Below, in pieces: positions 9,045-27,155 of a DNA stretch of 64,000 nucleotides; position 1 is the stretch's first letter; every line of letters begins with the position of its first letter. Where the stretch lies: positions 4,155-68,154 of the forward strand of contig CACZAC010000015.1 in assembly GCA_902779125.1 (NCBI GenBank). Direction: 5' to 3'. A program made the position numbers and the translations under genes. The DNA is from an uncultured Bacteroidales bacterium (GTDB lineage: Bacteria; Bacteroidota; Bacteroidia; Bacteroidales; Muribaculaceae). The notes beneath the pieces were generated by a model. The model was not told the DNA's origin and did not search any database. It saw only the letters and a list, made by a program, of their open reading frames with translations.

Positions 9045-9267
9045 TTTGAGGTGCAAATATATATACTTTTTAACGCATCACACCACAATGCATTGTGCAT
9101 TTTGCTTTAAATTCAACAAATTATTGATATTCATCAACAAAACCACACCTCATGAATTCTTTATGATTCAATGCAGCAATACACATCCACACACCTAAAC
9201 TTTGCCCGATAAAACCAATCGGACAACGTTTTGAGGTCGTCTGTCATCAATGTGAGTCAACAGCAAA

Positions 9268-9954: not shown

Positions 9955-10138
9955 CTCTTATGATATTTAATGATTTTAATTGTTCTGTTGGTGCAAATAT
10001 AGCTAAATAATGCGAATAGCCAACCAGTTTTGCTGAAATTTAGGCCAATTCATGAAAAACTATGATTATTTTCCAAAAAACTGGAATTTTTACTACCTTT
10101 GCGACAGACATGAACCGATAAAACGTGACCACTGCAAA

Positions 10139-11104
10139 ATGATTACCAATACAGGCTTAAACGAGGTGAAGGAAATCATGGGCTATCTTGACAAGACGCC
10201 TTACTGTGTGACCCGCAAGACGTTGTACGACGCCAACGAGTTGTATGAGGGTTTCAAGATTGACGATGAGGATAGTTACGGCAAGTGCTTTGACGGCAAG
10301 GTGTACCAGTATTACCAGTTTACAGGGATGCAAGATCCTGGTGCGAATGAATCGTTGGCGCGCAGCCTGCACGACCACGGCATTCATGCGGCTTTAAGGA
10401 TTTTTATGGAGGAACACGACCCGCAGCGCTGGGTTGGCGTTATGGGTGGTCATGCTATGCTTCGAACCGATAGGATGTTCTGCGATATCGCTGTCTTGAG
10501 CAAAAGGCTCACCGAGGAGGGTTTCATCATGCTGAGCGGTGGAGGGCCGGGAGCGATGGAAGCTACCCACCTAGGCGCCTGGATGGCTGGACGTACTGGT
10601 GAAGAACTGGACGAAGCGATGGCCATGCTCACCCCCACCCCGTCATTCAGGGATAAAGGTTGGCTGAACTCATCGTTTCGCGTGTTGAAGAAATATCCAC
10701 AGGAGCGTTATATAAGCCTGGGCATCCCGACCTGGTTGTATGGTCACGAGCCATCAACACCATTTGCCACCCACATTGCCAAATTCTTTGATAACAGTGT
10801 GCGAGAGGACAACATCCTCACGCTGGCTTATGGCGGATTAATCTACACGCCAGGTAGCGCGGGAACCATGCAGGAAATCTTCCAGGAAGCGGTTCAGAAC
10901 CATTATCTCTCCTTCGGATTTGCAAGTCCAATGATATTCCTGGGCAAGGAATACTGGTGCACAGAGATGCCTGTTTTCCCCCTGCTGGAACAATTGATGG
11001 AAACCGGCAAATATCAGAACCTGTTGCTCACCCTCACCGATGACCTCGACGAGGTGGTCGATGTGCTCGTCAAGTTTTCGAAGGAAAAGAAGCCCCAGCG
11101 CTAG
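10139..11104 (+). CDS. LOG/SMF-like Rossmann-fold nucleotide-binding protein
   Basis: GVMGGHA, SGGGPGAMEA, LGIPTWLYGHEP, REDNIL, PGSAGTMQEIF. Start moved to 10139 because a TACCTTTG -7 box at 10094-10101 lies inside the ORF-track N-terminus. Confidence 0.8.
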   Translation: MITNTGLNEVKEIMGYLDKTPYCVTRKTLYDANELYEGFKIDDEDSYGKCFDGKVYQYYQFTGMQDPGANESLARSLHDHGIHAALRIFMEEHDPQRWVGVMGGHAMLRTDRMFCDIAVLSKRLTEEGFIMLSGGGPGAMEATHLGAWMAGRTGEELDEAMAMLTPTPSFRDKGWLNSSFRVLKKYPQERYISLGIPTWLYGHEPSTPFATHIAKFFDNSVREDNILTLAYGGLIYTPGSAGTMQEIFQEAVQNHYLSFGFASPMIFLGKEYWCTEMPVFPLLEQLMETGKYQNLLLTLTDDLDEVVDVLVKFSKEKKPQR

Positions 11105-11958
11105 TCAATGCACATGAGATTACCCTGAGCAAGGATGCAGCTCTTGCCTCCGACCCAGATGGTGCCGTCGTCTTCCAGCATGGTGGCGACTACCGATGGA
11201 CGTCCCATCGTCTCGCCTTGCAGGAAACGGCATGCGGAGGGCACTGCAATGAGCCCTCTGCGATGCAGATAATGGGTCAATGCGGCATTGGCAGTACCTG
11301 TTGCTGACTCCTCGGGAATGCCATACAATGGACCGAAATTGCGGACATGAGCCGTATAGCCATCCTCACTCAACGCAAAAGCATGTACTCCTGTCACTTC
11401 CAGTTCCTGGCTTAGTTCACTCAAGGCGTCCATGTCGGGCTGCATGGCATTCAGGTCATCCACAGTAGCCACGGGCATCATGATGTCGGGCAGACCGGTA
11501 GAGACGATTTCTATGGGCATATCTGGCCAACCAGGCATCGTGGTACCCACCATGATACCGTGCAAGCGCTCTGTATCTACACGCTTCTCAATCACGCGGG
11601 GCATTGCCATCTGCATCATCACCTGTTCACCAATCCTCACCTCAAGGTCACCTGCCAGCGTGTGGTTCATGCACACATCGCCATCGCGCAAAATGCCCGT
11701 CTGGCACAGCACCCCGAAGGTAGCGATAGTCGCATGACCGCACAGGTCCACCTCGCCCTTCGGCGTAAAGTAACGCACCGTGAACTCTGTAGCGCCATTC
11801 TGCTGTACAAAGGCCGTCTCGCTGTAGCGCAACTCTGCAGCCACTAGCCGCATCAGTTCGTCAGTAGGGAAATCCCGGTCCAACAACACGACACCCGCAG
11901 GATTCCCGCCAAACGGCTCACTCGTAAACGCATCAACAATATAGTACTTCATACCCAA
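11101..11958 (-). CDS. PhzF-family isomerase/epimerase
   Basis: IVDAFTSEPFGGNPAGVV, SETAF, EVDLCGHAT, RNFGPLYGIPEESATGTA, QGETMGRPS. Confidence 0.93.
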   Translation of the reverse strand: MGMKYYIVDAFTSEPFGGNPAGVVLLDRDFPTDELMRLVAAELRYSETAFVQQNGATEFTVRYFTPKGEVDLCGHATIATFGVLCQTGILRDGDVCMNHTLAGDLEVRIGEQVMMQMAMPRVIEKRVDTERLHGIMVGTTMPGWPDMPIEIVSTGLPDIMMPVATVDDLNAMQPDMDALSELSQELEVTGVHAFALSEDGYTAHVRNFGPLYGIPEESATGTANAALTHYLHRRGLIAVPSACRFLQGETMGRPSVVATMLEDDGTIWVGGKSCILAQGNLMCID

Positions 11959-11989
11959 GAATTTTGAAACCTCATTTCATCTCACACCC

Positions 11990-14386
11990 CTAGAAATCAG
12001 TCATCTGTTTTCGATCGAAGAATACCATCTGCAAGAAAATACCAATGAACATGGCAAAGAACGAGAACATAACCAAAAACTTAGGCAAGATGAATAAGTC
12101 ATGGTTGGTATTCGGAATATGGTATCTGATAGCAAGCCGTCCCATATAATAGGACGTGTCATTACTGAATCTCACATGAGTCATAGACTCTACTCTTCCA
12201 ATTATAGGAGACAGTTTCCCCTCCGTACCTTTTGTCATTACTGAGCCTGAAATGGTATCATCATGTTGTCTTGTTGTTTCCCTATTTTCAACACATTTAT
12301 CTATAAACTTGTGTAATTCTTTTACATCAAAAGATCCGATTGCATTAGTATGTGATACATCTGAATTATATAATTCCAAATCATAGAAAGTAGGTGTGTG
12401 TCCATGCCTAGCTATGTATCTATCCGCAACAAAATTGATGACAAAAAGCCCTATGACAAATGAAATACAGTAGCTTATTAACAAGAATTCCAAAGCCCTA
12501 AATGAGCGCAGTATGGAATCAGATGTTGGAATAGTTCGATTGATTCTTGACATAATAAACCCAAACACAACAACTGTCAAAGCAAATGCTATGGGCGCAG
12601 AGAATTGGCGATCATAAAAAGCAATGAATACATCAAATCCCATCAACAGTGTTAACCATGCGGTAGTAATAGAAGCTACCAATTTTGGTAAAAACAAGTG
12701 AGAACTTTTAATGGGGTGAATGCTTGGGAGTCTGAACCGACCTAAACACCAAAACCACTTGCAGAATAAATAAATTGTCCCAACAACTGTTACAATCCCA
12801 AAAATCCAATCATTAAAGGACCATTCATTAAAGGACCATTCATTAAAAAACAATTCATTAAATTTTTTAGAAATATAATCAACTATACCATTACTCTGTA
12901 ACACTTTTGCAGTAAATGTCACGAACCAATAGGACACGATAATTAGAACAATCAGACGTTTAGAATATAACCTATTATTTATCTTAGTCAAACATGTTCC
13001 ATCATGCCTTACATAAAAATATACGAACCCTAAAACCAATGTCATAACTATAACTGCCCCCATCAAATGATAACAATCCAAGCTATCTGTCATGACAAAC
13101 TCAAATGCGCCTTTTACGGTATCAATTCCACAACTATGGCCGATAAACAATAAAAAGAAAAACACAAGCGTTAAGGCAAATAAGATCACATTCAAATGCT
13201 TGAACACATGTAGATGAACTACATCATTAAAATCAAATCGATCAAGAAACCATTGTGATACCCGAACACGATTTTCTTGCTCTGATTCAAGCATGGAACA
13301 AATGATTGCGCTATCCCTATGGTTTTCTTGTTCCTTCTCAAGTGATAAGTACTCCACCAGTGTCCTCGCATTGCAATTATGCTGATTATTCCATTCCTTC
13401 ACCGAGAAATGCACTCGACGCATTTCTTCTTCAGGGGTGGCAAACCAAGATGGCCACCTGAGCCCGCTCATTATTTCAAATATAATCGACCGAAACATCG
13501 TACTACGTTTTGGGAAATCATGTTCAAAACAAGTTTCGGACATCGGGTTCATGATGTCATTAATCCATTTTGCCTGGGCATCAAAAAGTTCTTTACCGTA
13601 TAAATATATAAGTTCATCCTTTTTTTCCGAAAGATGCTGTTTATTCATTTCCTTTTCTTTTTCATACCACTCAACAGCATTCTCTACAAGTGTACGATAA
13701 TAATAGAATTCACACTTGTGCATTAGGGAAGAGAAAAAGAAATTGGACATCAGTCCTGTATACATTCTATCATAATTCTTGCTCACACAGAAAACATCTG
13801 AGTGTTTCATATCAAACATGAAGTCAAGAATTAACTTCCGTAAAAATTTTACAACTACTTTCTCTTCAGAATTATTGTATAAGTCAATAATACCATTCTT
13901 ATCACTCATGTCCATTAACCAAAGCGTGGAATAGGATGCCTCCTCCTTCCTGCCCTGAAGACCTTTTTCACTTTTAATTAATTGATCAAAGTATCGACTG
14001 CCGACCTCGTTTCCACCTAAAGTTGGAAATTTGGCTAGATAGGCACCTTTTATTACGTCTGTTAAATCCAGAGACGCCTTTTCGACATAGGGAAGTTCTA
14101 GAATAACTTCACCCATGTGAGCAAGGCCAAGCTTTGGTTCTGCTCGAGTGAATTCTCCTATCGACAATTGGTATTCTGGTGATTCACCAGCCCCGTCCCG
14201 ATAAGCGCAATAGTGCAAGCGGAATTTCACCGAATCCGCATCAATAATCATGCTAATGGGATACTTGGGAGACATCGGCTTTTCCAAGCCTTCATAAGCT
14301 GCGACTTCGATATAGTCAAAGATTGTCACTCCGTCGACAACCTTTGACAACGACTGGTTCAGTCTGAAGAAACGTCCGTTGCTCAT
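11990..14386 (-). CDS. Polytopic membrane protein with a large soluble N-terminal domain (about 798 aa), unknown function
   Basis: About 400 aa soluble N-terminus, then roughly 9-10 hydrophobic segments. The ATG at 14386 overlaps the upstream stop as ATGA (14383-14386), so the start was moved from 14434. Confidence 0.8.
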   Translation of the reverse strand: MSNGRFFRLNQSLSKVVDGVTIFDYIEVAAYEGLEKPMSPKYPISMIIDADSVKFRLHYCAYRDGAGESPEYQLSIGEFTRAEPKLGLAHMGEVILELPYVEKASLDLTDVIKGAYLAKFPTLGGNEVGSRYFDQLIKSEKGLQGRKEEASYSTLWLMDMSDKNGIIDLYNNSEEKVVVKFLRKLILDFMFDMKHSDVFCVSKNYDRMYTGLMSNFFFSSLMHKCEFYYYRTLVENAVEWYEKEKEMNKQHLSEKKDELIYLYGKELFDAQAKWINDIMNPMSETCFEHDFPKRSTMFRSIIFEIMSGLRWPSWFATPEEEMRRVHFSVKEWNNQHNCNARTLVEYLSLEKEQENHRDSAIICSMLESEQENRVRVSQWFLDRFDFNDVVHLHVFKHLNVILFALTLVFFFLLFIGHSCGIDTVKGAFEFVMTDSLDCYHLMGAVIVMTLVLGFVYFYVRHDGTCLTKINNRLYSKRLIVLIIVSYWFVTFTAKVLQSNGIVDYISKKFNELFFNEWSFNEWSFNDWIFGIVTVVGTIYLFCKWFWCLGRFRLPSIHPIKSSHLFLPKLVASITTAWLTLLMGFDVFIAFYDRQFSAPIAFALTVVVFGFIMSRINRTIPTSDSILRSFRALEFLLISYCISFVIGLFVINFVADRYIARHGHTPTFYDLELYNSDVSHTNAIGSFDVKELHKFIDKCVENRETTRQHDDTISGSVMTKGTEGKLSPIIGRVESMTHVRFSNDTSYYMGRLAIRYHIPNTNHDLFILPKFLVMFSFFAMFIGIFLQMVFFDRKQMTDF

Positions 14387-16086
14387 CTTTGCTCTTTTTT
14401 CAGATTCATCACATGCTGCCGAATAAACCCACAAGCCGACATAAACATATCTTTGGTCTCCTGACTAACATCATGGCTCGATATATACCCATCAAACATA
14501 TCTCTGAAATATAAATACTCCTCCCATATATCACTCCACTGACGAGTTGTGCCAAACGCCGTCAAATGGATCATCTGAGTCAGGTGCTCGAGCATACCGC
14601 CAAGATACTCATTCTTTTGCACAAAGTCGGTTATCAATACAGAGCCTTTAATACTAAAAATATCTTTCCCATTTGTTGGGTACTCAACATCCTTGAGCAT
14701 TCGTTGATAATGATATTGGAGGCTCAAAACCTCTCTATATTTGCTGCTGGCTCTCTCCCTCACGGTTTGATTGTCATATTTGGAATTATCGGGATCATAA
14801 ATATTGTTGACACCTTGAATGATTTCATCTGCAGATAATTTATTAATACCCGAACGGTCCAATCTTCTATCCATTAACTTTATAAGATTGTACATAAACA
14901 ATTGAGGGGTATTAGTCGGGCAAGCCCCAACACTGATATGCCAATACTCTTCATTCAGATTTAAGCCTTCAGCTAGCAAGCGCTCGTGAACTGCAGACGG
15001 ATAAGCGGACATAAACATGAAAAACAAACAATCTCTCGGACCGATTATATAGTCATTTTTGTGGTTTTCTATTTCTCTCAATAATTTGTAGCCATATTCA
15101 TTTTCACCCAATAGATAGTCAAGAAGAATAAAATCATACTTTCTATTTTTTAACGCTTTCTTTGCTCCACTTAAGTTTTCCACATATTCAATCAGAAGAT
15201 TACAATCGAGATGTGTATCATAGTTCTCCTGATAGGGCCTAGACTTAATCCCCTCAAACATTTTCTTTAGTCGGCTTTCTATAATCTTCACTTTAGAAAC
15301 CAAGGAGGCATCGGAGAGCGACTTATAAGGGGGCATTGGAGAGTTTGCTTTATCGTCCACCAACAAGATACGCCACTTGTAATTGAATATTCTATCAATT
15401 ATTGTTTTATTATCCGCATCATCAGTCAACTTGCTTAAAATTTTACTCTCAGAATGAAAGACAAAAGGACTAACATGCACACCATGACTATCAAACTTTA
15501 AATGTGATTCTCGTGTCTTCCTAGCATTAAATTCTGCGTATTCTTTAGCAACATCTAAGTCATACAATCCATTTTTAATATTATACGTGATATCCTCAAT
15601 GGCCTTTTTCAGTTGTTTCTTATTCTTGGCATCAAAAGAAACTTGTGACGTGATGACATCTTCATCTAATTTAATAAAAAAATTCCAGATAGAACTATCA
15701 ACAACAGCAGCATAACGTTTTGCTCTAGGTTCTTCAAAAGACATCCTACAGAAATGCAGTATTGGACTATAAATACCCGAAATAAACTGCTCTTGCCCGT
15801 ACATGTAATATCTTTTTGTCCCATCTTTTATAAATCGCTCCGTTCTCTCATGAGAAACATTACCGCGAAAATCATTAGCATGGTGAATTAAGACATCAAA
15901 TTCATAATTGCCAGCCAAACTAGGATCAATCTTTATTTCTGACAATACTCTCTTGATTTCAAAAATCAATTTCCAACAATAAATGTAGTAATCTGCACCG
16001 TCAACAGCTGCGTTATATAAATACGGACGGAATTTTGAAACAGTAATGGTTCCATCCTCTTTTATCGTATACTTCAAAGGTATCAT
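14383..16086 (-). CDS. Receiver (REC)-domain protein with uncharacterised N- and C-terminal domains
   Basis: WRILLVDD (beta1), YDFILLDYLLG (beta3 Asp), FFMFMSAY (beta4 Ser); no HTH recognised. Confidence 0.75.
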   Translation of the reverse strand: MIPLKYTIKEDGTITVSKFRPYLYNAAVDGADYYIYCWKLIFEIKRVLSEIKIDPSLAGNYEFDVLIHHANDFRGNVSHERTERFIKDGTKRYYMYGQEQFISGIYSPILHFCRMSFEEPRAKRYAAVVDSSIWNFFIKLDEDVITSQVSFDAKNKKQLKKAIEDITYNIKNGLYDLDVAKEYAEFNARKTRESHLKFDSHGVHVSPFVFHSESKILSKLTDDADNKTIIDRIFNYKWRILLVDDKANSPMPPYKSLSDASLVSKVKIIESRLKKMFEGIKSRPYQENYDTHLDCNLLIEYVENLSGAKKALKNRKYDFILLDYLLGENEYGYKLLREIENHKNDYIIGPRDCLFFMFMSAYPSAVHERLLAEGLNLNEEYWHISVGACPTNTPQLFMYNLIKLMDRRLDRSGINKLSADEIIQGVNNIYDPDNSKYDNQTVRERASSKYREVLSLQYHYQRMLKDVEYPTNGKDIFSIKGSVLITDFVQKNEYLGGMLEHLTQMIHLTAFGTTRQWSDIWEEYLYFRDMFDGYISSHDVSQETKDMFMSACGFIRQHVMNLKKEQR

Positions 16087-16098
16087 ATTGATATATCA

Positions 16099-16695
16099 TT
16101 AAGGTTTTTCATTAGTTTCAATTTTATTCCAAATTAATTGAATGATATCAGTATTTGGATTCAACTCATTTTTTTCTATGAGGTAAATGTAAATTATTGA
16201 GTACACCCGCTCATTATCCTCCATGTCATGTTGATAGCCATAAATCTTAAAAAGGGCATCAGATCGCTCTCTTTTGACAATATCAAGGATACTTCCTACC
16301 ACTAGATCATCTTGGGCAAAAGAGCGCTCAGAAGCAAAATCCAACTTAAATAAATCTTCATCATGAGCGACCAATAGAATCTCTAGCTTATTGCTTTGGT
16401 TCTGACTACCAAAATCATCAAGAACATCCCGAACCATTGCGCCAACGATATCTTGGCGCATTTTTAGCTCAAGATTCTTAACTTGACTCTTAGCGATACA
16501 CGGCATTACATACATGTAGCTATCGTCTGTAAGTTGCCGTTTAAAAGGGTTCAACTGTCCTGTTTCGAATATCGTTATTATATTCTTATTTAATAAATTA
16601 TTGATTGTATTACAAACATGCTTGCTCAGGAATCGTCTACAATCGTGCTTACGGAGCGCTTCGGGCTGTTTTGTAGTTAAAATTAATACTCTCAT
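16099..16695 (-). CDS. Hypothetical alpha/beta protein (possible degenerate receiver-like fold)
   Basis: 198 aa AT-rich ORF with 11-12 bp gaps to both neighbours; MRVLILTT, EILLVAHDEDL, KIYGYQHD strands. The fold assignment is inference. Confidence 0.65.
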   Translation of the reverse strand: MRVLILTTKQPEALRKHDCRRFLSKHVCNTINNLLNKNIITIFETGQLNPFKRQLTDDSYMYVMPCIAKSQVKNLELKMRQDIVGAMVRDVLDDFGSQNQSNKLEILLVAHDEDLFKLDFASERSFAQDDLVVGSILDIVKRERSDALFKIYGYQHDMEDNERVYSIIYIYLIEKNELNPNTDIIQLIWNKIETNEKP

Positions 16696-16706
16696 TTTAC
16701 TTGAAT

Positions 16707-19700
16707 TTAAGATTTCTTTCTCATATATATCGTATTATAAAGCAATTGGGACAGTTGGAACTTCGAATTATTAAATGCATTCTCTAAAGCTGAGAGGCTG
16801 ACAAAAGGATACAACCTTAAGGCTTCATTCATATCTTTGCTTAAACTGTTGCCCCTCCCAGAATGAACCGCAATAAACGCATCTTCTCCGAAATACTCTT
16901 TCAACATCCCCATAAACGCCTCAATTCTGTCTTTTGACAGTTTATTTTCAAGCATCTGATCTGCATCTAAATTCAACAGATTGTTTATATAAGCATTCAC
17001 TATTCTTGAATTCTTCAGAATCTTCTCTATAAGCCCTAAATGTATCGTCAAAAAATGAGTTTCGTTGCTATAATTATTGAAACTATTCCCCACAAAAACA
17101 CGCGATAATGCAGCTTCATTAGCTCCTAAAGTAGAATCTGAGTTTTCATCAAAATTTAGAAGTCTTATATTTTTCAACGATAACCATTCTAATGCATTTT
17201 TCTTCACTTTTGTCGTCTTAAAGAGCCTTTCATCGATAATCGTTATTCTGGTCAAAGCCGATTCTTTAATCTTTAACGCCAACAATTCATCGGCTTCTTC
17301 TTTGAAATGGTCATCTCGATTGAAACCATTCTTTACTGCATTTTTGAATAATTCCTCTAAAGTTATCGTAAAATTGCCTCCGGAAACCGTATCAACATAT
17401 GCCAAGCCTTTATTCTTCTTGCCTGGTTTTTCCTTTGAATCCAAATGATACTTAAAATAAATCCTGTACTGTATGTTCGAATTATCACCCATCACTCCTT
17501 CTTCAAGATACGACTTATATAGCGGTTCACATAAAGGCGGCTCGCCATCTCGCATAAAACAAATTGCATACTTGTCAATGTCAGGGAATCGTTCTTTAAT
17601 TGCGCGTCTGAACTTTTCTAAATCTGATTTCTTCTTTCCGCAATCATATTCAATGACTCTTGTAAATACTTTTCGCAAGTCTGGACACATGACATCGATG
17701 AACTGTTCTGTCTTCTTTACCTCAACGACATCAGCCATCACGTTAAACATCTCGTGTTCATTTGTTGATGAATCATTTGTCAATTTGATTTGTTGACAGG
17801 TTTGATAAATCGGCAATGTAAATAAAAGTCCAAGATTTGAATTGCTTTCAACATGTTTTATTCTATTATTTCTATCATAGATTCTAAATCCCGTGACTCC
17901 TTCGCCCTCAACAACCTTTACAAACTTAAAGCCATAATATTCAATCAAATCAAGCTTTTTCATTGAATCTTCCTCATTATTAATTCTTGTTAATATATCT
18001 GAAAAAGATTCATTTTCTCCAAACATATAAGCTCTCATCCATATCGTTGACAACAGCATCTCTTTAAGACCTTTATCTTCTTTTGCAAGGACATTTGATT
18101 TATCGATGACTTCTAATCTGCCTAACCTTTCACATAAATCCAAGAAAAGAGTTTTGCAGCCATTGTCATCAGAATATTTATTTGCATTTCGTTTATTATC
18201 ATAGAAAATGATATCCAAATGATTCTTTTTAGGCTCCGAATAAGGTCGAATCACTATAGTAAATACCAGTCCATCTTTTTCACTAACATCTTCTCTTAAA
18301 TTTTTAGCAGAGTTTCGAATGAAATTCTCCAGCACCGTAAAAAAAGCATGAGATGACATGATTCCACCTGGAAGAGCCAGATTCAACCTTGATAGATCAT
18401 TCTTAATCCCTTGTTCTTGTGATATTATATTCTCATGCCATGAACCAGTAAAATCACGATAAACCACTCCATCATTTGAGTATTTTACTTTTAGAAATAA
18501 TCGATTCTCGTGTCGCAAATTTTCGTCATCCGTTTTCACATCGTCTCGAGTAAAGTTTTCTGAACGAATTAGGTTGGTCAACAAGAAATTAGTAGTCCTT
18601 TTATTCGTTTCCTCAGGAAAATGCCTATGTGAAAAATCATCAACCGTCAATTCATCAAAAATCTGAGATTTAAAGTTTACTGGACCATACGAATATTTAT
18701 CATTCGATATTATTGTGGCAAGAAAATCCATTCTTGATTGAAGATAACCTAAAACCTTTGCCACGCCCCTAATATCAGGCGCAACATCTCCATCATCCGC
18801 TGCTTTTTGTTCAAGATAGGATTTCGTGTAATACAGGTAATGGCTACCTAGATTATGACTCATATTGCGAGACATAATTGCTGCTATTGCCGATTTAATT
18901 GCCTCACTCTTAGAATAATTCAATAGTTGTTTTGTTGTATGAATGGATGCCCAATTTTGGAGACAATCAAATACTGATAACGAAAGAGTCAAGCTATTGT
19001 TTGAAAATAATGCGATTCCACCCGCCGTTATTTGCTTTATTCCATGTTCGTTGCAAATCTCAAAAGCCGGTGGTATTAATGCTGCATAATACTTAATTTT
19101 ATTTTTTGTTGTTGGCCAAGTAAATAATATTGCCATTTTTATGGCATCTTTTGCATTCAGTAAATCGGGGTGATTCGCAAACTTCTCGTTGATTTCATCG
19201 TCGAAATTCTCAAAGTCATTTTTTTCAAAAGCCAAAATTCGAGGCATCTTCTTCAAATCATTTTTAACTTCTGCCATAAACTTCTGGTGTTGTCCACTGA
19301 GCTTCCCAACTCCAGTTTTAATAGAATAAGTTGCGGAAATAAGTTTAGAAACTTTCAAATGAATCTCATAATATTCATAGTTTGATGGCGTATGAAGTCT
19401 TTTAACATCAATAGTTATCGGTCTCGATGCAGTTATATCCAATGCCCCATTTATACACAAAGATATTCGATTGCTTCCACTAAAATACAACTCTTCAGTA
19501 AAATTCTTATAAAATAGATCCGTTCCCTGAAAGTTGTCGTACTCTTTCAGTGATGCTAAACCTTCCATCCATATTCTCTTTGCATCATCATATGTTTTAG
19601 GGGCGTATATATCATAATTAACCGATTTGATTCTCGGTGTTTCAAGTGACGTTTGGAAATCATATTCAACAAAATGACAATAAGCGACGCCAACTTCACT

Positions 19701-19754
19701 AGATATAACAGAAATTGCATTCTTTACGTTCTCTAACTTTTGCTTATCTAACAT
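16707..19754 (-). CDS. Soluble atypical histidine kinase-like protein (H-box, GHKL ATPase, C-terminal pseudo-receiver)
   Basis: H-box AIMSRNMSHNLGSH; N-box FFTVLENFIRNSAKN; IIFYDN; EDKGLKEM; LGLLFTLPI; C-terminal RITIIDER...FLTIHLG...AVHSGRG. No TM segment. Confidence 0.75.
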   Translation of the reverse strand: MLDKQKLENVKNAISVISSEVGVAYCHFVEYDFQTSLETPRIKSVNYDIYAPKTYDDAKRIWMEGLASLKEYDNFQGTDLFYKNFTEELYFSGSNRISLCINGALDITASRPITIDVKRLHTPSNYEYYEIHLKVSKLISATYSIKTGVGKLSGQHQKFMAEVKNDLKKMPRILAFEKNDFENFDDEINEKFANHPDLLNAKDAIKMAILFTWPTTKNKIKYYAALIPPAFEICNEHGIKQITAGGIALFSNNSLTLSLSVFDCLQNWASIHTTKQLLNYSKSEAIKSAIAAIMSRNMSHNLGSHYLYYTKSYLEQKAADDGDVAPDIRGVAKVLGYLQSRMDFLATIISNDKYSYGPVNFKSQIFDELTVDDFSHRHFPEETNKRTTNFLLTNLIRSENFTRDDVKTDDENLRHENRLFLKVKYSNDGVVYRDFTGSWHENIISQEQGIKNDLSRLNLALPGGIMSSHAFFTVLENFIRNSAKNLREDVSEKDGLVFTIVIRPYSEPKKNHLDIIFYDNKRNANKYSDDNGCKTLFLDLCERLGRLEVIDKSNVLAKEDKGLKEMLLSTIWMRAYMFGENESFSDILTRINNEEDSMKKLDLIEYYGFKFVKVVEGEGVTGFRIYDRNNRIKHVESNSNLGLLFTLPIYQTCQQIKLTNDSSTNEHEMFNVMADVVEVKKTEQFIDVMCPDLRKVFTRVIEYDCGKKKSDLEKFRRAIKERFPDIDKYAICFMRDGEPPLCEPLYKSYLEEGVMGDNSNIQYRIYFKYHLDSKEKPGKKNKGLAYVDTVSGGNFTITLEELFKNAVKNGFNRDDHFKEEADELLALKIKESALTRITIIDERLFKTTKVKKNALEWLSLKNIRLLNFDENSDSTLGANEAALSRVFVGNSFNNYSNETHFLTIHLGLIEKILKNSRIVNAYINNLLNLDADQMLENKLSKDRIEAFMGMLKEYFGEDAFIAVHSGRGNSLSKDMNEALRLYPFVSLSALENAFNNSKFQLSQLLYNTIYMRKKS

Positions 19755-20410
19755 CTTTTCCTTCCAATAATATAACTGATTATTCGATTCCTATTTGTCA
19801 TATTCTCTATAAATGGAAAAATCCCTTTTTCCTCTATATAGAACTTTTCAACAAACAATTCCAGGATAGAGACGGCATAAGATTCTATTTTTGTTGTTTC
19901 AGATATTCTTTTGCCATCACTTTTAAACAAGTCATCCTCTTGTGTAAAATCCCCAAATAGCAATATACCGCCAGGTTTAACAATATTAAATAACTGATTC
20001 CTATATTCTCTCCAATCTTCTGGATCTATATGATGAAATATGCCCCAACAAATAACGCCATCAAATTCGTTATCATTAAACATTTTTTCCGGTTCTTTCG
20101 TCGGGAAAATGACCTTGTTTACATTAATGTTTTCATATTCTATACAATAATTAAGAGCATTATAGGACACATCATAATAGTAAACATCACAATATGAATA
20201 AGTATCTGCTATGTACTTACCTAATCTACCTGTACCACATCCATAATCCAAAATGCGAATAGTTTTTTTGTCGCCTATCTTGTCTACCAATCCATCCAGC
20301 AGATATTTTGGTAACGCAGTATTAACCCATGGCAGAAATGGAATAGAATCAATTTTTTCATAGACTCTCTCCCATGCATCATTTATTCGCTTTCTTCTAT
20401 CTATTAACAT
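19748..20410 (-). CDS. Class I SAM-dependent methyltransferase
   Basis: RILDYGCGTGRLG (motif I), YYDVS, FDGVICWGIFHHI, VKPGGILLF. Confidence 0.92.
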   Translation of the reverse strand: MLIDRRKRINDAWERVYEKIDSIPFLPWVNTALPKYLLDGLVDKIGDKKTIRILDYGCGTGRLGKYIADTYSYCDVYYYDVSYNALNYCIEYENINVNKVIFPTKEPEKMFNDNEFDGVICWGIFHHIDPEDWREYRNQLFNIVKPGGILLFGDFTQEDDLFKSDGKRISETTKIESYAVSILELFVEKFYIEEKGIFPFIENMTNRNRIISYIIGRKRC

Positions 20411-20432
20411 CAGTATAATAATATTAAAGAAA

Positions 20433-21500
20433 CTACTGATATTTTTTTAGTGTCAAAGAAGGTTTAATATCTCCATTCTTCGATATGTAATAGATATATT
20501 CAGAAGAAATCACCAATGAATCATTGTTTCTAATCTCATTAGATATTTGCTTCACATATATGCTCCCTTCTTGTGCCTCATTCAAATAATATGGTATTGA
20601 ATAAGCCAAGAAACATATAGACGAAAAATCAATATTATACCTGCTGCGTATTATATCATTTCTTTTTTTTGTAGAATCTGAATCACCTATCTTGTAATCA
20701 ATATATTCAACACCCTTGCCAGATTCTCCAGCAGCTGTCAAAACATCAGAACTGGTAAATCCTGTATTTGACAGAATAGGACCGTTATAACCTAAATCTC
20801 TTATTGATTTAATCAAGACACCTAGGGCTGAAGAAAAACCGATGGCAATAATACCATTGGGGTCTCTTTTTAATCCCTGTACTACTATATTTTTATAATC
20901 TGTATTTGACTCATCATATTTTATACTCTTTAATGCATCGTCTTTTTTTATAAGAGTTTCATTAAAAGGGATACCGTACTCAGTATTAGGATAGAACAAA
21001 ACTATTCTCTGATAATTACTCTTGTTAATCCCCTCAATGATTGCGTTGCTTTCATCTACAGAACTGTTGCCAATCTTAAAAATATTATATTCCCCTCCAG
21101 AAGTAATATCTGGATGTGATGCCACACAAAATAACAATTTATCATCTTTAATAACTACAGGTTTTAAAGCTAAAGAATATGCACTGCCAGCCGTCACAAA
21201 AATTGATACCCCATTTATAGTCTTAAGTTTATTGTAAGCATTAAGAACATTTCGCTGTTCGCTAGCGACATCTTCTACCAACAATTCATACTTAATGGGA
21301 TTATCTGCTTGGTTCAATTCTTCGATGGCCAACTCAAGACCAGCCTTCATTGACGTTCCTAGGCCGGCTTGATTTCCTGTCATAGGCAGTATAGCTCCAA
21401 TTTTAATAGTCTGACAGTCCTTTTTATTACAAGACTTATATCCAATAATCAAAGCTATGAAAATAAAAAACAGCAGTGCAATTAATTTAAACGCTTTCAT
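20433..21500 (-). CDS. ABC transporter substrate-binding protein, type 1 fold (LivK/LivJ-like)
   Basis: TIKIGAILPMTGNQAGLG...AGLELAIEELN...YELLVED, NTEYG, DYKNIV...DPNGI motifs; N-terminal membrane anchor. Confidence 0.9.
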   Translation of the reverse strand: MKAFKLIALLFFIFIALIIGYKSCNKKDCQTIKIGAILPMTGNQAGLGTSMKAGLELAIEELNQADNPIKYELLVEDVASEQRNVLNAYNKLKTINGVSIFVTAGSAYSLALKPVVIKDDKLLFCVASHPDITSGGEYNIFKIGNSSVDESNAIIEGINKSNYQRIVLFYPNTEYGIPFNETLIKKDDALKSIKYDESNTDYKNIVVQGLKRDPNGIIAIGFSSALGVLIKSIRDLGYNGPILSNTGFTSSDVLTAAGESGKGVEYIDYKIGDSDSTKKRNDIIRSRYNIDFSSICFLAYSIPYYLNEAQEGSIYVKQISNEIRNNDSLVISSEYIYYISKNGDIKPSLTLKKYQ

Positions 21501-22218
21501 ATTCTCTATTTTTAAACATTAGACTTTCAATTTCCGACAAGCTTAATAGCTCATCAACAAATACGTACAAAATTTTTCTATCCCCCATCATCATACACCT
21601 CTCACAGAACTTCACGGCCTTGGCGATGTTCTGTTCGATGAGGATGATGGTGACATTGAACTTTGCCCTGATATCACAGAGTATCTGGTACATCTCTTCT
21701 ACGGCTTTGGGTGAGAGACCAGCGCTAGGCTCATCCAGGATGACGAGGCGAGGGTTGGTAGCCAGGGTCATTGCTAGAGAAAGCTGATGCTTCTGTCCAC
21801 CGCTCAGTTTGTCTGCCATTGTGTGTTGCAGTTCCTTTTTGGAGCGCTGCAACATAGGGATGATGTTCTTGAGAACGTCAAGGGTATTGGAAGGCTGTCT
21901 GGACAGGGATAACTGCAGGTTATCCCATACCGATAAGTTCTTGAATACTCTGCCTCCCTGCTGCATAATTGAGATGCCACGATGAGATAGCTGGCTGGTT
22001 GTCAGCGAAGTGATGTCTTCACCTTCAAAGAAGATATCTCCCTTGCGGAAAGGTAGCATGTTCATGATGGCCTTTCCTAAGGTAGATTTACCCGAGCCAT
22101 TAAGGCCAATGATACCTACAGCTTCACCTTGCTGCACATCAATAGAGATGCCGCGGAGGATGTCGAATCCCTCCAGGTAGCCCCCCCACAGGTCATTGAT
22201 CTTCAGTATCTCGCTCAT
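21487..22218 (-). CDS. livF: HAAT-family ABC ATPase (LivF-like)
   Basis: GLNGSGKST, LSGGQ, LDEPSAGLSP, IEQN; family-level call. Confidence 0.88.
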   Translation of the reverse strand: MSEILKINDLWGGYLEGFDILRGISIDVQQGEAVGIIGLNGSGKSTLGKAIMNMLPFRKGDIFFEGEDITSLTTSQLSHRGISIMQQGGRVFKNLSVWDNLQLSLSRQPSNTLDVLKNIIPMLQRSKKELQHTMADKLSGGQKHQLSLAMTLATNPRLVILDEPSAGLSPKAVEEMYQILCDIRAKFNVTIILIEQNIAKAVKFCERCMMMGDRKILYVFVDELLSLSEIESLMFKNREYESV

Positions 22219-23000
22219 AAGCCCAAATAACTATTTCTCACATTTTTATCATCAAGCACCTCGGCTGTTGGACCAACTTTAGCAATGATGCCCTCATCAA
22301 GATATGCGCAGACATCGGCCACTTTACGGACAAAATGCATGTTATGTTCTATCAGCAGGACGGTCAGGCCCTCCTGTTCCTTCATCTCGCGGATTATCTG
22401 CTCAATAATTTCTATGTACATCGGATTAACACCTGATGTTGGCTCGTCAAGCAATAGCAGACGGTCTCCACCCATCAGCAATCGTGCAAGGGAGAGAATG
22501 CGCTGCTCTCCATAAGAGAACTCAGAGGCATCCTTATCAAGCATATTCAGATACTTGTTGTCTTGTCCGAAAATGCGTGTAAGAACCTCTCGCACCTGTA
22601 ATTCCTTCTGCAGCTCGGCTTTTTTCCATTTCTTCGGGAACAACAGCGATGAGAAGGGCATCTCACCGGTTGTATCGTCAGATGCCAACTTCATGTTTTC
22701 CATCAGAGTCAAACCACCCATTAGCTGGCCATCCTGAAACAAGCGTCCAATGCCCATCAGCGAGATGCGGTGAGCGGGGATGCGGTTGAAGTCATTGCCC
22801 TCGAATACCACCTCTCCAGTGTAGTTTTTCTCAAACCCCGAGATAATGTTGAACAAAGTAGTTTTTCCCGTGCCGTTACCACCAACAAGTGCAGTGATTT
22901 TGCCCTTCTCAACATCAAGGTTAACACCACGCAATAAGTCGAATGACTCGTTTTGGGCATTCGTGAAACTGATGCGTATGTCTTTCAGTTGCAAAATCAT
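22215..23000 (-). CDS. livG: HAAT-family ABC ATPase (LivG-like)
   Basis: GGNGTGKTTLFNIISG, RLFQ, FSYGEQR, LLLDEPTSGVNP, LIEHNM; family-level call. Confidence 0.9.
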   Translation of the reverse strand: MILQLKDIRISFTNAQNESFDLLRGVNLDVEKGKITALVGGNGTGKTTLFNIISGFEKNYTGEVVFEGNDFNRIPAHRISLMGIGRLFQDGQLMGGLTLMENMKLASDDTTGEMPFSSLLFPKKWKKAELQKELQVREVLTRIFGQDNKYLNMLDKDASEFSYGEQRILSLARLLMGGDRLLLLDEPTSGVNPMYIEIIEQIIREMKEQEGLTVLLIEHNMHFVRKVADVCAYLDEGIIAKVGPTAEVLDDKNVRNSYLGL

Positions 23001-23004
23001 ATCG

Positions 23005-23877
23005 CTACTTCATTATCGTTTTTCCCAAAAGACCTTGGGGGCGGTAATACATCACAAGAATCAGGGCCAGTCCGTAGATAATCTGCCTAAGATTGGCAGC
23101 AACGGAATCTGGCAACCCCACAAAACGGAGCAGCTCAGGCAATAACACAACAAACACGGCACCAAGAACGGGTCCTTTGGTATTGCCTATGCCACCTATA
23201 AACAACGCACTAAGGATAAAAATACTTTCGTCAAGCGTGAAACTGGTTGGGTCTATATAGCTAACATAAGACGCATAAATGATGCCTGCCAATCCTGCTA
23301 CGGCTGCCGATAGGAAGAAAGCAAGTGACTTAAACTTAACGATATTGCGTCCCATCGACTTCACTGTAATCTCATCGGCACGTATAGCATTCAGTACCCT
23401 GCCAAACGGAGACTCCACCAAATGGTGAAACAGAAAGACGACGACTGCCATGAGTACTAATGACAAAACGAGATAGGCATACACACCAGTGAGTTCAAAC
23501 ATCCCAAATAGTCTGATGCCAGGGATGCCCGGAATGCCGTATGGACCACGCGTTACATCTGTCCAGTTGTAAAGTATCGTATAAACAATCAGTTGGAATC
23601 CCATCGTAGCAATCACGAAATAGTCATCTTTCAACCTAACAGAAGCAAAAGAAACAAGGAAACTAAAAGCACCAGTAAACAACATCACCAGTGCAGCGAC
23701 CAAAAGAAACGGCAGATTGAACTGCATCAGGAAAAATGTTCCAATGTACGCACCGATACCATAGAATGCAGCCTGACACATGGTCAGCAAATTGGCCATG
23801 CCAATAGTCAAGTTCGCACTCAGTGTCAACATGATGTATATGTTGAGCATGATGATGATATGAAATACATACTCCAT
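23005..23877 (-). CDS. livM: HAAT-family ABC permease (LivM-like)
   Basis: QAAFYGIGAY, RLKDDYFVIAT, TRGPYGI, SPFGRVLNAIRADE, YIDPTSF, GGIGN..GPVLGA, RPQGL. Confidence 0.92.
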   Translation of the reverse strand: MEYVFHIIIMLNIYIMLTLSANLTIGMANLLTMCQAAFYGIGAYIGTFFLMQFNLPFLLVAALVMLFTGAFSFLVSFASVRLKDDYFVIATMGFQLIVYTILYNWTDVTRGPYGIPGIPGIRLFGMFELTGVYAYLVLSLVLMAVVVFLFHHLVESPFGRVLNAIRADEITVKSMGRNIVKFKSLAFFLSAAVAGLAGIIYASYVSYIDPTSFTLDESIFILSALFIGGIGNTKGPVLGAVFVVLLPELLRFVGLPDSVAANLRQIIYGLALILVMYYRPQGLLGKTIMK

Positions 23878-23878
23878 A

Positions 23879-24748
23879 CTACACAGTGCGTTGTTTATAT
23901 CCCGCTATGCCTTGAGGCCGCAAGAAAAGGAGAATAATCAAAACCAAGAACGTTACAGCGTTTTGCCAATTGGAAGCAAAATGATAGACCGTCAACGATT
24001 GCAGGACACCCAATGTCAGTCCGCCAAGGATACAGGTGCTGAACCTACCGACACCGCCTATAATCATCGCCACAACTGCACTGATTAGCACATTCATACC
24101 CATATTGGGGTCAAGACCTACATCATAGACAGTCAGGCAGCTGGCAAGGGCAATAAATACACCACTCACCAGAAACACGAGGACTCTAGTTTTTTTAGTA
24201 TCGTAACCCAGTGTCTCAAACAAAGTCTCGTCGGCACTCAATGCTCTCAACCTCAAACCCCAATTGGTGCGTTGCAACAATACCATGAAGATAATCAGTA
24301 CCGTAATACCTATCAAGGCCTGATACTTTTGAGGGGAAGTGATGATAATATCCCCAAAAGTCAACGGTTGCAGAATAGAGTTATCTATCACCTTGGTTTC
24401 GTTGCCAAAAAACATGGCAATGGTGTTGATAATGACAGTCATCGCACCAATGGAGGCTATCATTGCCACATTGAGTGAGGCCTTTTTGTTTTTCAACGGC
24501 CGATATATAAGCACTTCAGTCAAAAGACTGAGCAGCATGGTCAACACTAATGCGACAAGAGAGGCAGGAATGACAGGCAGCCCTACACTAGCTACAAAAA
24601 ACCAGAACATATAGGCCGCAAACACATATATACCGGCTGCAGCTATATGGAATATCTTAGTCGTATTAAACACCAAGGCAAACCCTATCGCCAACAGCGA
24701 GTAGAGGATTCCAGTTATTAATCCATTTATGACAAATTGCCAAATCAT
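23879..24748 (-). CDS. livH: HAAT-family ABC permease (LivH-like)
   Basis: NGLITGILYSLLAIGFALVF, FHIA, IYRPL, TNWGLRLRA, IIGGVG, RPQGI; ATG at 24748. Confidence 0.92.
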   Translation of the reverse strand: MIWQFVINGLITGILYSLLAIGFALVFNTTKIFHIAAAGIYVFAAYMFWFFVASVGLPVIPASLVALVLTMLLSLLTEVLIYRPLKNKKASLNVAMIASIGAMTVIINTIAMFFGNETKVIDNSILQPLTFGDIIITSPQKYQALIGITVLIIFMVLLQRTNWGLRLRALSADETLFETLGYDTKKTRVLVFLVSGVFIALASCLTVYDVGLDPNMGMNVLISAVVAMIIGGVGRFSTCILGGLTLGVLQSLTVYHFASNWQNAVTFLVLIILLFLRPQGIAGYKQRTV

Positions 24749-24771
24749 CAAATTCTTTTTGATTGTAATTG

Positions 24772-24779
24772 CAAAAGTA
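24772..24779 (-). promoter_or_regulatory. Bacteroidetes primary-sigma -7 box heading the livH...membrane-protein operon
   Basis: Minus-strand TACTTTTG (TAnnTTTG consensus) 24 nt upstream of the livH ATG. Confidence 0.7.
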
Positions 24780-25213
24780 TATAAAAAATACCGTTTTTTT
24801 ACTCTATGAACGGAAAAAAGACAAAAAAAGCATATTTTATTGTTTATTTCTTTTTTATAAGACTATGGTTACTCCTCTTCACTATAACAGATACATTGAG
24901 CACATGGCCAGTATTATACTTTAATTATATGAAAGCGAGAGCCTTTCCTCATTATCGGACAACGTGAAAGTAGTCAAAAAGGTAGCAAATCATCCCCAAA
25001 AACCATGAAAAAAAGTGTAAAAGAAAGAGGGTACAGAAATCATGGGTATAAACCGAGTAATATGTGAGGCCGGGCAAGATACAAATTCATAAATTAAAGA
25101 TAGAGACTAATAAAAAGCAAAGAAATCTTCAGTATTATGCAATAATTCAATAAAATGTTGTACCTTTGTGATGATTACTTGAATTGATGACTATTTGATA
25201 AAACGAAATATTT

Positions 25214-26833
25214 ATGAGGCACTATCTGAAGAATCTAGAAGACACTGTGCGCCAGCATTGGACCCAAAAAGCCTTGTGTGACTACAACGGCGACTCTTTT
25301 ACCTATGCACAGCTGGCTATCAACGTTGAGCGGTTCCGCATCTTTTTCTCTGCTGTCGGCATCGGCAAAGGGGATAAAATCGCTATTTGCGCCCGCAACA
25401 GCGCCCGCTGGGCGATGACCTTTTGGGGAATCAATGTCAATGGCTGTGTGGCGGTTCCGCTGCTGTCCGACTTTCATCCTAGCACGGTTTCCACCCTCAC
25501 CAACCATTCTGACAGCGTTCTGCTCTTTGTCGACGATGACATCTGGACAAAAATGAACCCTGACGAGATGCCTAACCTCAAGGCGGCCATCAATGTCAAG
25601 GACGGCAACCTGCTGTGGCACCAGGATGAGGATGTGGCTAGTGCCTGGAACAACCGCAAGGCAGCATTCACACAACAATATCCCAACGGAATGTATCCCG
25701 AGCAGGTGTCCTATCCCGGCGACAATGGTGATGACCTGGCCATCATCAACTACACGTCAGGAACCACGGGCAACCCCAAGGGCGTGATGCTCACCTATAA
25801 CGCCATGTCCGATACCGACGATTTCGCGAACAGGCATTTCCCGAACACTCCCGGTCAAACGATTGTTTCAATGTTGCCCCTGGCTCACATGTACGGATTG
25901 GCTATCGAGTTCATCCATCCTAACGTCGATGGAGTGACCGTTTATTTCCTGGGCAAGACTCCATCGCCCACCACCCTGCTCAAGGCAATGAAGGACATCA
26001 AGCCCTATATGGTGGTCACGGTGCCCCTGGTAATGGAGAAAATCTATGCCAATGCCATCAAACCGGCGCTTGAGAAGGCGAAATCCTTACTGGCCATTCC
26101 CGGACTGAACAAACTGATTTACCGCAAAGCCCGCAACAAGGTGATTGAGGCTTTTGGCGGGAGCGTGGAATGCTTCATCATGGGTGGCGCTGCGCTCAAC
26201 CCTGAAGCCGAACAGTGCTTCAAGAAGATTCGCCTGCCCTACACGGTGGGCTATGGCATGACCGAAGCCTGCCCGCTGCTGGGTTATGAGTGGTGGACCA
26301 AATTTGTGCCTGGATCTTGCGGGAAAGCCGTCCATGAGCTGCGTATCGACTCCGATGACCCGCAACATATACCAGGAGAAATCCAAGCCAAGGGTCCCAA
26401 CCTCACCATCGGCTATTATAAGAATCCCGAAGCCACTGCTGCGGCTTTCACCGAGGACGGATGGTTCCGCACCGGTGACCTGGGCATTATAGACGCTAAG
26501 GGCAACATTTTCATCCGTGGACGCATCAAGTCGATGATTCTGAACTCCTCGGGCCAAAACATCTACCCCGAAGAGGTTGAAGCCGTCTTGGCCAACTGCC
26601 AGTATGTGGATGAGTGCCTGGTAGTGGACCGCGACGGGAAAATCACAGCACTCATCTACACCGAATTCCCCGAGGACATGGACGAGGCGACCAAGGCTGC
26701 TATCCCTGGACAAATCCGCGACGAGGCCAACAAGTCCCTACCCGCTTACAGTAAAATCACAAAAGTGGAGATGAAGGCAGAACCCTTCGAAAAAACACCG
26801 AAGAGAACCATCAAACGCTTCCTCTATCAATAA
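25214..26833 (+). CDS. Long-chain fatty acid-CoA ligase (AMP-binding family)
   Basis: YTSGTTGNPKGV, YGMTEACP, GWFRTGDLG, GRIK, GQNIYPEEVE, KTPKRTIKR. Confidence 0.93.
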   Translation: MRHYLKNLEDTVRQHWTQKALCDYNGDSFTYAQLAINVERFRIFFSAVGIGKGDKIAICARNSARWAMTFWGINVNGCVAVPLLSDFHPSTVSTLTNHSDSVLLFVDDDIWTKMNPDEMPNLKAAINVKDGNLLWHQDEDVASAWNNRKAAFTQQYPNGMYPEQVSYPGDNGDDLAIINYTSGTTGNPKGVMLTYNAMSDTDDFANRHFPNTPGQTIVSMLPLAHMYGLAIEFIHPNVDGVTVYFLGKTPSPTTLLKAMKDIKPYMVVTVPLVMEKIYANAIKPALEKAKSLLAIPGLNKLIYRKARNKVIEAFGGSVECFIMGGAALNPEAEQCFKKIRLPYTVGYGMTEACPLLGYEWWTKFVPGSCGKAVHELRIDSDDPQHIPGEIQAKGPNLTIGYYKNPEATAAAFTEDGWFRTGDLGIIDAKGNIFIRGRIKSMILNSSGQNIYPEEVEAVLANCQYVDECLVVDRDGKITALIYTEFPEDMDEATKAAIPGQIRDEANKSLPAYSKITKVEMKAEPFEKTPKRTIKRFLYQ

Positions 26834-26866
26834 AAAACAGACCTTTAGGTCAAATAGCAGGAGAAG

Positions 26867-26908
26867 AAATGCCTGCAGAACCGACAAACATTGGTTTTAC
26901 AGGCATTT
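26867..26908 (+). terminator. Terminator-like hairpin after the acyl-CoA ligase
   Basis: aaatgcctg...caggcattt inverted repeat with an inner aacc/ggtt stem. Confidence 0.6.
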
Positions 26909-26971
26909 GATTCAGAACGATTAGTATCCTCATCAGCTAGTCTTTTAAGCCTTTAGGGCTGTCAGGTTATA

Positions 26972-27155
26972 GGCAGGAGTTCCGCTTCGCTGCACTCCTG
27001 TAATTAATCGCCACACACGAGCAATAGCCCCATTAGGGGCGGCACGTTACTGCCGCCCCGATGGGGCTAAGACTTCAATGTTCACGATTGCAGGGGTTGC
27101 ACTCGGCTTCGCCTCGTTACACCCCTGCCTATACCCTGCTCGCTCCTGACGGAGC
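26972..27155. repeat. Cluster of GC-rich palindromes (REP/BIME-like)
   Basis: caggagt/actcctg (26974-27000); tagccccat-ggggcggca/tgccgcccc-atggggcta (27025-27069); gcagggg/cccctgc (27090-27128); gctcc/ggagc (27142-27155); inner gcttcgc and ggcttcgcc loops. Confidence 0.65.

Follow-up and report, generated by a model that had tools for sequence, protein, structure and literature searches.

A divergent histidine-kinase-like protein encoded beside an ABC importer in an accessory gene cassette of an uncultured Bacteroidales bacterium

The window analysed here is a stretch of 64,000 nucleotides from an uncultured member of the Bacteroidales (family Muribaculaceae; GenBank assembly GCA_902779125.1, contig CACZAC010000015.1, positions 4,155 to 68,154 of the forward strand), and all coordinates below are those of the window. 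The gene of interest (16707-19754, minus strand) is a single open reading frame (ORF) which specifies a cytoplasmic histidine-kinase-like protein of 1015 amino acids. It stands sixth in a closely spaced run of ten genes on the minus strand (11990-24751). The order in this cassette is two permeases, two ATP-binding cassette (ABC) ATPases, a substrate-binding protein, a methyltransferase, the kinase-like protein, a 198-amino acid protein, a receiver-domain protein and a membrane protein.

An earlier note on this DNA had quoted eight short strings from the 1015-amino acid protein, and each of them occurs in it exactly once. They are the H-box IMSRNMSHNLGSH (residues 293-305; 18840-18878), which holds His300 and His305; the N-box LENFIRNSAK (residues 475-484; 18303-18332); FYDNKR at the G1 position (residues 517-522; 18189-18206); EDKGL in the lid, or G2 (residues 559-563; 18066-18080); the last strand LGLLFTLP (residues 641-648; 17811-17834); and, towards the C-terminus, RITIIDER (residues 836-843), FLTIHLG (residues 901-907) and AVHSGRG (residues 962-968). 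The absence of a membrane segment, also claimed there, agrees with a maximum Kyte-Doolittle mean of 1.24 over 19 residues. Over 340 homologues were recovered from the 5.8 billion proteins searched; none of them has a Pfam domain, and every one is unnamed or labelled "hypothetical". Scans with Pfam, NCBIfam and PADLOC gave no match to the protein, and searches of PDB sequences with the single protein and with profiles A2, A3 and A4 gave only marginal matches, to the N-box of CpxA and to the Smr domain of N4BP2. Searches of the literature turned up no account of a system built in this way.

In an alignment of 116 homologues residues 284-1015 are strongly conserved and residues 1-280 are essentially unalignable. 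Invariant across this alignment are R296-Y306, E476, N477 and R480-K484; D519, K521, N523, G562, K564 and E565; and, in the C-terminal part, D841-R843, H905-G907 and S965-G968. The H-box IM[SA]RNMSHN[LI]GSH and the N-box [LI]EN[FI][IM]RN[SA]AK[HY] are kept in 38 sequences drawn from genome loci of several phyla (Bacteroidota, Clostridia, Akkermansia, Desulfobulbaceae, Nitrospira, Brocadia, Acidobacteriota and Calditrichia), in which G562 and E565 likewise persist. Judged from these alignments, the conservation of the motifs is far beyond chance.

Residues 261-350 (18705-18974) are predicted to form a helical hairpin resembling the DHp (dimerization and histidine phosphotransfer) domain, with helices at residues 261-298, 302-320 and 325-350, and are followed by a putative GHKL catalytic domain at residues 351-660 (17775-18704). 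Structural modelling, which the earlier note had recommended, was carried out with AlphaFold2 from the 116-sequence alignment on the database representative P0001, which carries two substitutions relative to the window protein (V261L and A946V). It returned a DHp hairpin and a GHKL alpha/beta sandwich, with a predicted local distance difference test (pLDDT) score above 85 from residue 305 onward. The best PDB matches of the full model in Foldseek are all histidine kinases, namely WalK (E 4.5e-6, probability 0.98), LvrB, the P4 domain of CheA, CpxA, RetS and AgrC. At the profile level, hhalign matched residues 270-660 to six canonical kinases that the genome also encodes, at a probability of 76% (E 2e-5), pairing ENFIRNSAK with NLLDNAVKY and IIFYDNKRNAN with ITVQDNGIGMK; as a negative control, receiver or Smr profiles gave less than 1%. 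The model and the profile comparison thus show residues 261-660 to be a predicted DHp-like hairpin and GHKL catalytic domain of the histidine-kinase type. Since hhalign sets IIFYDNKRNAN on ITVQDNGIGMK, Asp519, expected to contact the adenine, occupies the position of the G1 aspartate.

The protein resembles the HisKA/HATPase_c kinases of the WalK, CpxA and EnvZ class in the predicted succession of DHp hairpin and GHKL domain, the S-H-x-L-x-S/T core of the H-box, an N-box of the type NxxxNAxK[YH], the G1 aspartate, the usual T-L-P of the closing strand of the catalytic domain, and the presence of a cognate receiver protein in the same operon. It differs from them in matching no Pfam or NCBIfam model, in having a second invariant His five residues beyond the first, and in carrying Asn for Glu/Asp after the His. 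Both G1 glycines are replaced by Lys and Asn, DNKxN standing for DxGxG throughout the family, and the G2 position reads KG[LI]KE[MI] (that is, a KGxKE lid) instead of GxGxG family-wide; G562 is the sole glycine kept and there is no glycine loop. Approximately 100 residues of insertions in the catalytic and ATP-binding (CA) domain, a 360-residue orphan module at the C-terminus, and a fully cytoplasmic location with a hypervariable sensor complete the list of differences. Altered nucleotide specificity, as raised in the earlier note, is an idea that would fit the rebuilt lid. With regard to the two histidines, the best local path between DHp profiles, which is not significant, sets S-H300-N-L-G-S on the T-H-E-[LF]-K-T of HisKA kinases; because this puts His300 in the phospho-His column, we take it to be the likelier acceptor of the two.

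A profile of the DHp-CA core, another suggestion of the earlier note, was run against 1.84 billion cluster representatives (clusters at 50% identity) and found 3132 proteins at E≤1e-3, 2195 of them at E≤1e-30, and ordinary kinases were not drawn in. The "distinct kinase clade" proposed in that note is borne out by the fold search, the hhalign probability of 76%, the lack of a match to any curated model, and the bounded family of some 3100 clusters. As delimited by these searches, the family is a large, sharply bounded and divergent clade of the kinase superfamily. We place it outside any existing family because it matched none of the sequence models and does not have the G-boxes by which membership is recognized.

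The N-terminal domain (residues 1-281; 18912-19754), presumably a ligand sensor, is hypervariable, with a mean pairwise identity of about 15% versus 53-79% in the core. Its approximately 280 residues, for which the earlier note had considered a GAF-like sensor, matched no Pfam family, GAF included; in the model, the input of which was effectively unaligned over this region, its pLDDT is below 50. The extent of the variable region is defined by a syntenic relative of the locus with the same flanking genes (L097). The DNA of the two is 90-94% identical over 9261-18911 and 21615-26981, and the 2.7 kb at 18912-21614 is the only stretch without detectable DNA similarity. This segment comprises kinase codons 1-281, the methyltransferase and binding-protein genes, and the last approximately 42 codons of the second ABC ATPase; one of its breakpoints falls immediately 5' of the codons for the H-box. 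In L099, a system that is distant elsewhere, the DNA matches that of the window at 72.7% identity over 18840-23535.

The same pattern is seen in the proteins. Relative to the window, the L097 proteins are 97-98% (permeases), 98% (first ABC ATPase, 261 amino acids) and 85% (second ABC ATPase, 243 amino acids) identical on one side of the variable segment; 31% (binding protein) and 24% (methyltransferase) within it, with no similarity at all in the kinase N-terminus; and 78% (kinase core), 86% (kinase C-terminus), 85% (198-amino acid protein), 97% (receiver protein) and 95% (membrane protein) on the other side. For L099, the locus of which does not include the permease genes, the corresponding values are 85% and 69% for the two ATPases, 77% for the binding protein, 67% for the methyltransferase and 58% for the kinase N-terminus, followed by 27% for the kinase core, 27% for its C-terminus, 22% over 59 residues (E 0.013) for the 198-amino acid protein, 44% for the receiver protein and 34% for the membrane protein. 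The gene order within the segment is binding protein-methyltransferase in the window and in L099, and methyltransferase-binding protein in L097. Co-variation was examined in 29 loci, which give 406 pairs. Where the kinase N-termini are related (nine pairs), so in every case are the binding proteins (normalised score 0.31-0.94), however similar or dissimilar the cores; where the cores are similar but the N-termini are not related (12 pairs), the binding proteins are without exception unrelated (0.03-0.15). These sequence comparisons show the kinase N-terminus to be a swappable, presumably specificity-determining domain, and they show residues 1-281 of the kinase, the methyltransferase and the binding protein as exchanged by recombination as one unit. 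The simplest reading is that the binding protein and the kinase N-terminus recognise the same imported small molecule.

The importer itself consists of two ABC ATPases and two BPD_transp_2 permeases (21487-24751, minus strand) and by its Pfam matches is of the leucine/isoleucine/valine (LIV) or hydrophobic amino acid (HAAT) type. The 355-amino acid substrate-binding protein (20433-21500, minus strand) matches Peripla_BP_6, and its nearest solved structures are Leu/Ile/Val-type binding proteins. It is presumably extracytoplasmic, because it begins with a signal or anchor segment (a transmembrane segment at residues 1-25). The 220-amino acid protein encoded next to it (19748-20410, minus strand) matches Pfam models Methyltransf_25, 23, 12 and 11 and is a predicted S-adenosylmethionine (SAM)-dependent methyltransferase. 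It is an optional member of the cassette: approximately ten related loci have it, and its gene may precede or follow that of the binding protein. Conservation is high for the ABC ATPases and permeases (tblastn E values down to 1e-150) and weak for the binding protein (about 1e-15).

Contigs from many phyla show the same order of genes, some with the methyltransferase and some lacking it. In nearly all loci the kinase-like gene is immediately preceded by five ABC genes, a linkage which was seen in Bacteroidota, Clostridia, Akkermansia, Desulfobulbaceae, Nitrospira, Acidobacteriota and Chlorobiaceae. Within the host family only one of 151 genomes carries the cassette, namely the source genome of the window, and for this reason we consider it to be an accessory system. 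The mol% G+C content is 34-38% over the cassette stretch (12000-22000) versus approximately 50% in the flanks, with the ABC permease and first ATPase genes intermediate at 44-46%.

Downstream of the kinase-like gene lie three further genes on the minus strand. The first (16099-16695) specifies a small conserved protein of 198 amino acids; an iterative hidden Markov model places its gene immediately after that of the kinase in at least 20 loci. Pfam, NCBIfam and PADLOC gave no match to this protein or to the listed 814-amino acid ORF at the end of the cassette; the only PADLOC match in the scan of the cassette core was that of the methyltransferase to a generic methyltransferase model.

The second of these genes (14383-16086) encodes a 567-amino acid protein with a receiver domain at about residues 237-400. 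Compared with eight receivers of the same genome it gave an hhalign probability of 93% (E 3e-7), and the motifs WRILLVDD (D244 and D245), YDIILLDYLL (with D323 as its second Asp) and FISA (S360) are invariant in 27 homologues. The protein, encoded two genes downstream of the kinase, thus holds a true receiver domain, with Asp323 as the likely acceptor. Ahead of it, residues 100-215 have an invariant set of their own (P108, D130, W134, Y175, E182, R189, H201, P207 and F210-H211-S212-E213), which suggests a further catalytic or binding domain without a family match. Fusions also occur. In an Akkermansia locus (L014, 9272-) the kinase-like protein and the receiver partner form a single polypeptide of 1797 amino acids, and in Lachnospiraceae and others (L008, 4532-7240; L016, 12041-; L048, 12226-) a protein like the 198-amino acid one is fused to the N-terminus of the receiver partner, giving products of 770-902 amino acids.

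The last gene (11990-14386) specifies a membrane protein of 798 amino acids with a soluble part of about 400 residues followed by 8-9 transmembrane segments. The listed 814-amino acid ORF (11990-14434) opens at an upstream TTG, and the true start is Met17 (14386): the homologues align from residue 17, and the gene as called in L097 specifies 798 amino acids. The start overlaps the stop of the 567-amino acid gene (ATGA). No DNA-binding domain was found anywhere in the cassette. In some Bacteroidales and Prevotella loci (L009, 13044-16670; L010, 12734-15320; L018, 13915-16930) alternative output modules stand behind the same kinase family. There the receiver and membrane pair is replaced by a different receiver-like protein (VIDEE ... 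RDYDLQF) and an ion-channel-like membrane protein of about 260 amino acids ending in ISWIFLGVFISLLYSKF; in L009/L003 a PARP-like protein of 356 amino acids is added.

We propose that the 1015-amino acid protein is the sensor kinase of a horizontally mobile, two-component-like cassette with its own LIV-type ABC importer, and we put the probability of this reading, including the chain of events that follows, at a little over one half (roughly 0.55). An outside ligand, a small molecule, would be bound by the binding protein and imported, possibly to be methylated by the methyltransferase. The variable N-terminal domain (residues 1-281) would then recognise the imported ligand and so control ATP-dependent autophosphorylation at His300. 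From His300 the phosphoryl group would move to Asp323 of the 567-amino acid protein, which in turn would control the translationally coupled 798-amino acid membrane protein and not transcription.

Several observations weigh against this proposal. Among 31 family members, not one match to the Pfam models HisKA, HATPase_c and Response_reg was obtained at a cut-off as lenient as E≤1, and a search of the whole genome with PF02518 matched 11 other genes, the 1015-amino acid gene not being among them. The DHp region alone, compared by hhalign with canonical DHp domains, gave a probability of 1.3%, which is not significant, and the confidence of the model falls below 50 exactly at residues 292-302. 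In HisKA kinases the acidic residue after the phospho-His usually assists autophosphorylation; the residue after His300 is an invariant Asn. With the lid glycines all gone, the binding of ATP cannot be taken for granted. The methyltransferase is missing from some loci, and the co-variation of binding protein and sensor could partly be due to plain physical linkage and a hot spot of recombination at the conserved codons of the H-box, with no ligand in common. Finally, the patchy spread, the low G+C content and the interchangeable membrane, ion-channel-like or PARP-like effectors would fit a conflict system equally well.

Some of these points lead to the reading of the protein as a GHKL pseudokinase or ATPase switch, in which the kinase fold is kept, His300 is not phosphorylated, and ATP or another nucleotide drives a conformational switch or the protein acts as a scaffold; the invariant HxxxxH would then serve another role, such as the binding of a metal or a partner. 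The family-wide absence of the G1 and G2 glycines, the Asn after His300, and a DHp similarity which is statistically undetectable, with no histidine-kinase model matched, are what such a protein would be expected to display. We consider it unlikely. Strong divergence has left both histidines, the Mg-binding Asn pair, Lys484 and Asp519 unaltered throughout, and a conserved, sometimes fused partner with a complete phospho-acceptor site of the receiver type is hard to explain without phosphotransfer.

A second alternative concerns the biological role and is compatible with the kinase chemistry. The cassette may, like Detocs, act against phages or in some other conflict, with a membrane-damaging output and a hypervariable N-terminus which senses an invader protein and not an imported metabolite. 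Detocs consists of a kinase (DtcA), a buffer receiver (DtcB) and a receiver-effector (DtcC). The likeness to that system extends to a cytoplasmic kinase-like sensor, an effector which is coupled to a receiver and does not act on transcription, an additional small protein between the two, interchangeable effectors and a patchy distribution. The presence of the cassette in a single host-family genome, on a low-G+C island, its hypervariable sensor, and effectors which include ion-channel-like and PARP-like proteins in place of a transcriptional output all speak for such a role. It differs from Detocs in that its effector is a separate membrane protein, that PADLOC found no match for any core protein (1015, 198, 567 and 814 amino acids), and that it includes a five-gene ABC importer. 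A universally linked, dedicated importer, the extracytoplasmic binding protein of which co-varies with the sensor, is left unexplained by the sensing of a phage component in the cytoplasm, and a conflict role appears doubtful to us.

The C-terminal part of the protein is the subject of two further alternatives. It comprises a conserved alpha/beta region (residues 661-830; 17265-17774), with invariant columns at R722, H770, D788, S791-G792 and T796, and a beta-alpha repeat module (residues 831-1015; 16710-17264), with D841-E842-R843, H905, K911, S965-G966-R967 and K998, which the earlier note had called a pseudo-receiver. A separate model of residues 655-1015, built on 29 diverse sequences, has a pLDDT of 85 and a predicted template modelling score of 0.88. 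For residues 837-1006 the secondary structure is predicted to be a beta-alpha unit repeated five times, with D841-E842-R843 after strand 1, His905 after strand 3 and S965-G966-R967 after strand 4, and these motifs are kept across phyla. The position of the receiver phospho-Asp, after strand 3, is occupied by the invariant His905.

On this basis the earlier note had read the C-terminus as a receiver in which His905 replaces the phospho-Asp, with a His-based relay within the same protein. The part of this claim that stands is the resemblance in predicted topology: a five-fold beta-alpha repeat with D841-E842, H905 and S965 at the positions of the acidic pair, the Asp and the Thr/Ser of receivers. 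Weak Foldseek matches include the receivers of PleD and RssB. The sequence profiles and fold searches do not bear out the rest. Compared with eight receivers of the same genome, the C-terminus gave an hhalign probability of 0.3%; PF00072 matched none of the 31 members; and Foldseek against the PDB, which is rich in receivers, gave no match below E 0.05 and template modelling (TM) scores of at most 0.26. The weak matches are to generic alpha/beta folds (phosphoribosyltransferase, transaldolase/TIM, EAL, SEFIR and a few receivers), with the receivers at E 0.07-0.7 and TM scores of at most 0.24, and a search of the viral structure library BFVD returned nothing. In addition, the conserved Lys998 lies off the strand-5 position, and we know of no precedent for His-to-His transfer in two-component systems. 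An internal His-based relay is accordingly given little chance by us. A TIM-barrel reading, prompted by the many weak transaldolase, TIM and EAL matches, was rejected on TM scores of 0.16-0.26 and root-mean-square deviations of 14-19 Å. An Smr-type nuclease, which would read LSIHLG as LDLHG and HSGRGN as TGRGNHS and to which the marginal match with N4BP2 over HSGRGN (E about 1) points, is effectively refuted by an hhalign probability of 0.5% against eight Smr domains, the lack of Smr structures among the Foldseek matches, and different spacing (H-x-G versus H-G; 60 versus about 35 residues between motifs).

We therefore describe the C-terminal 360 residues as an orphan alpha/beta module and not as a demonstrable receiver. 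Its invariant residues (H770, D788, S791-G792, DER841-843, H905, K911, SGR965-967 and K998) suggest a putative phosphate- or nucleotide-handling site. The module is autonomous: in the locus of a Clostridia metagenome-assembled genome (L050, 11094-12850) the DER / H.G..DK / SGRG module is a separate ORF of 585 amino acids directly downstream of a kinase-like protein which does not carry it. That it regulates or reverses phosphotransfer would be a weak guess.

If the 1015-amino acid protein is the sensor kinase of an importing cassette, as we favour, there are partial parallels among known signalling systems. In the staphylococcal agr specificity groups a hypervariable unit of the kinase sensor domain and adjacent signal-handling genes defines the alleles (PMC5981134), and in the phc quorum-sensing system of Ralstonia the PhcB methyltransferase is encoded beside the PhcS kinase (PMC8578825). 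The hypervariable unit of the cassette likewise spans the sensor domain of a kinase, and a SAM methyltransferase gene likewise lies beside that of the sensor kinase. Unlike agr and phc, the cassette holds no signal-precursor gene that we could find, its signal would enter by the ABC system and be sensed in the cytoplasm, more in the manner of Opp-dependent RRNPP peptide sensing, its output is a membrane protein, and its kinase is not related in sequence to AgrC or PhcS. A dedicated ABC importer is absent from agr, phc and Detocs alike.

Few bacterial proteins are as well catalogued as histidine kinases, yet this clade of approximately 3100 clusters escapes every curated model, and it does without the glycine lid held to be essential for the handling of ATP. 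If active, it would widen the definition of the family and offer a natural test of what the G-boxes are for. The invariant coupling to an LIV-type importer and the joint exchange of binding protein, methyltransferase and sensor domain suggest a signalling design not previously described, in which an interchangeable ligand specificity is combined with a non-transcriptional membrane output. The two alleles represented by the window and its syntenic relative L097 offer a ready-made experiment. It is possible, and we offer this tentatively, that the cassette is a widespread mobile "import-and-sense" system of communication or recognition, in which allelic units of binding protein, methyltransferase and kinase sensor domain set which extracellular small molecule a strain imports and answers, and a private phosphotransfer to a membrane effector replaces gene regulation. 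If true, this would be a pherotype-like system in the Bacteroidota and at least six other phyla, built upon a previously unrecognised histidine-kinase clade.

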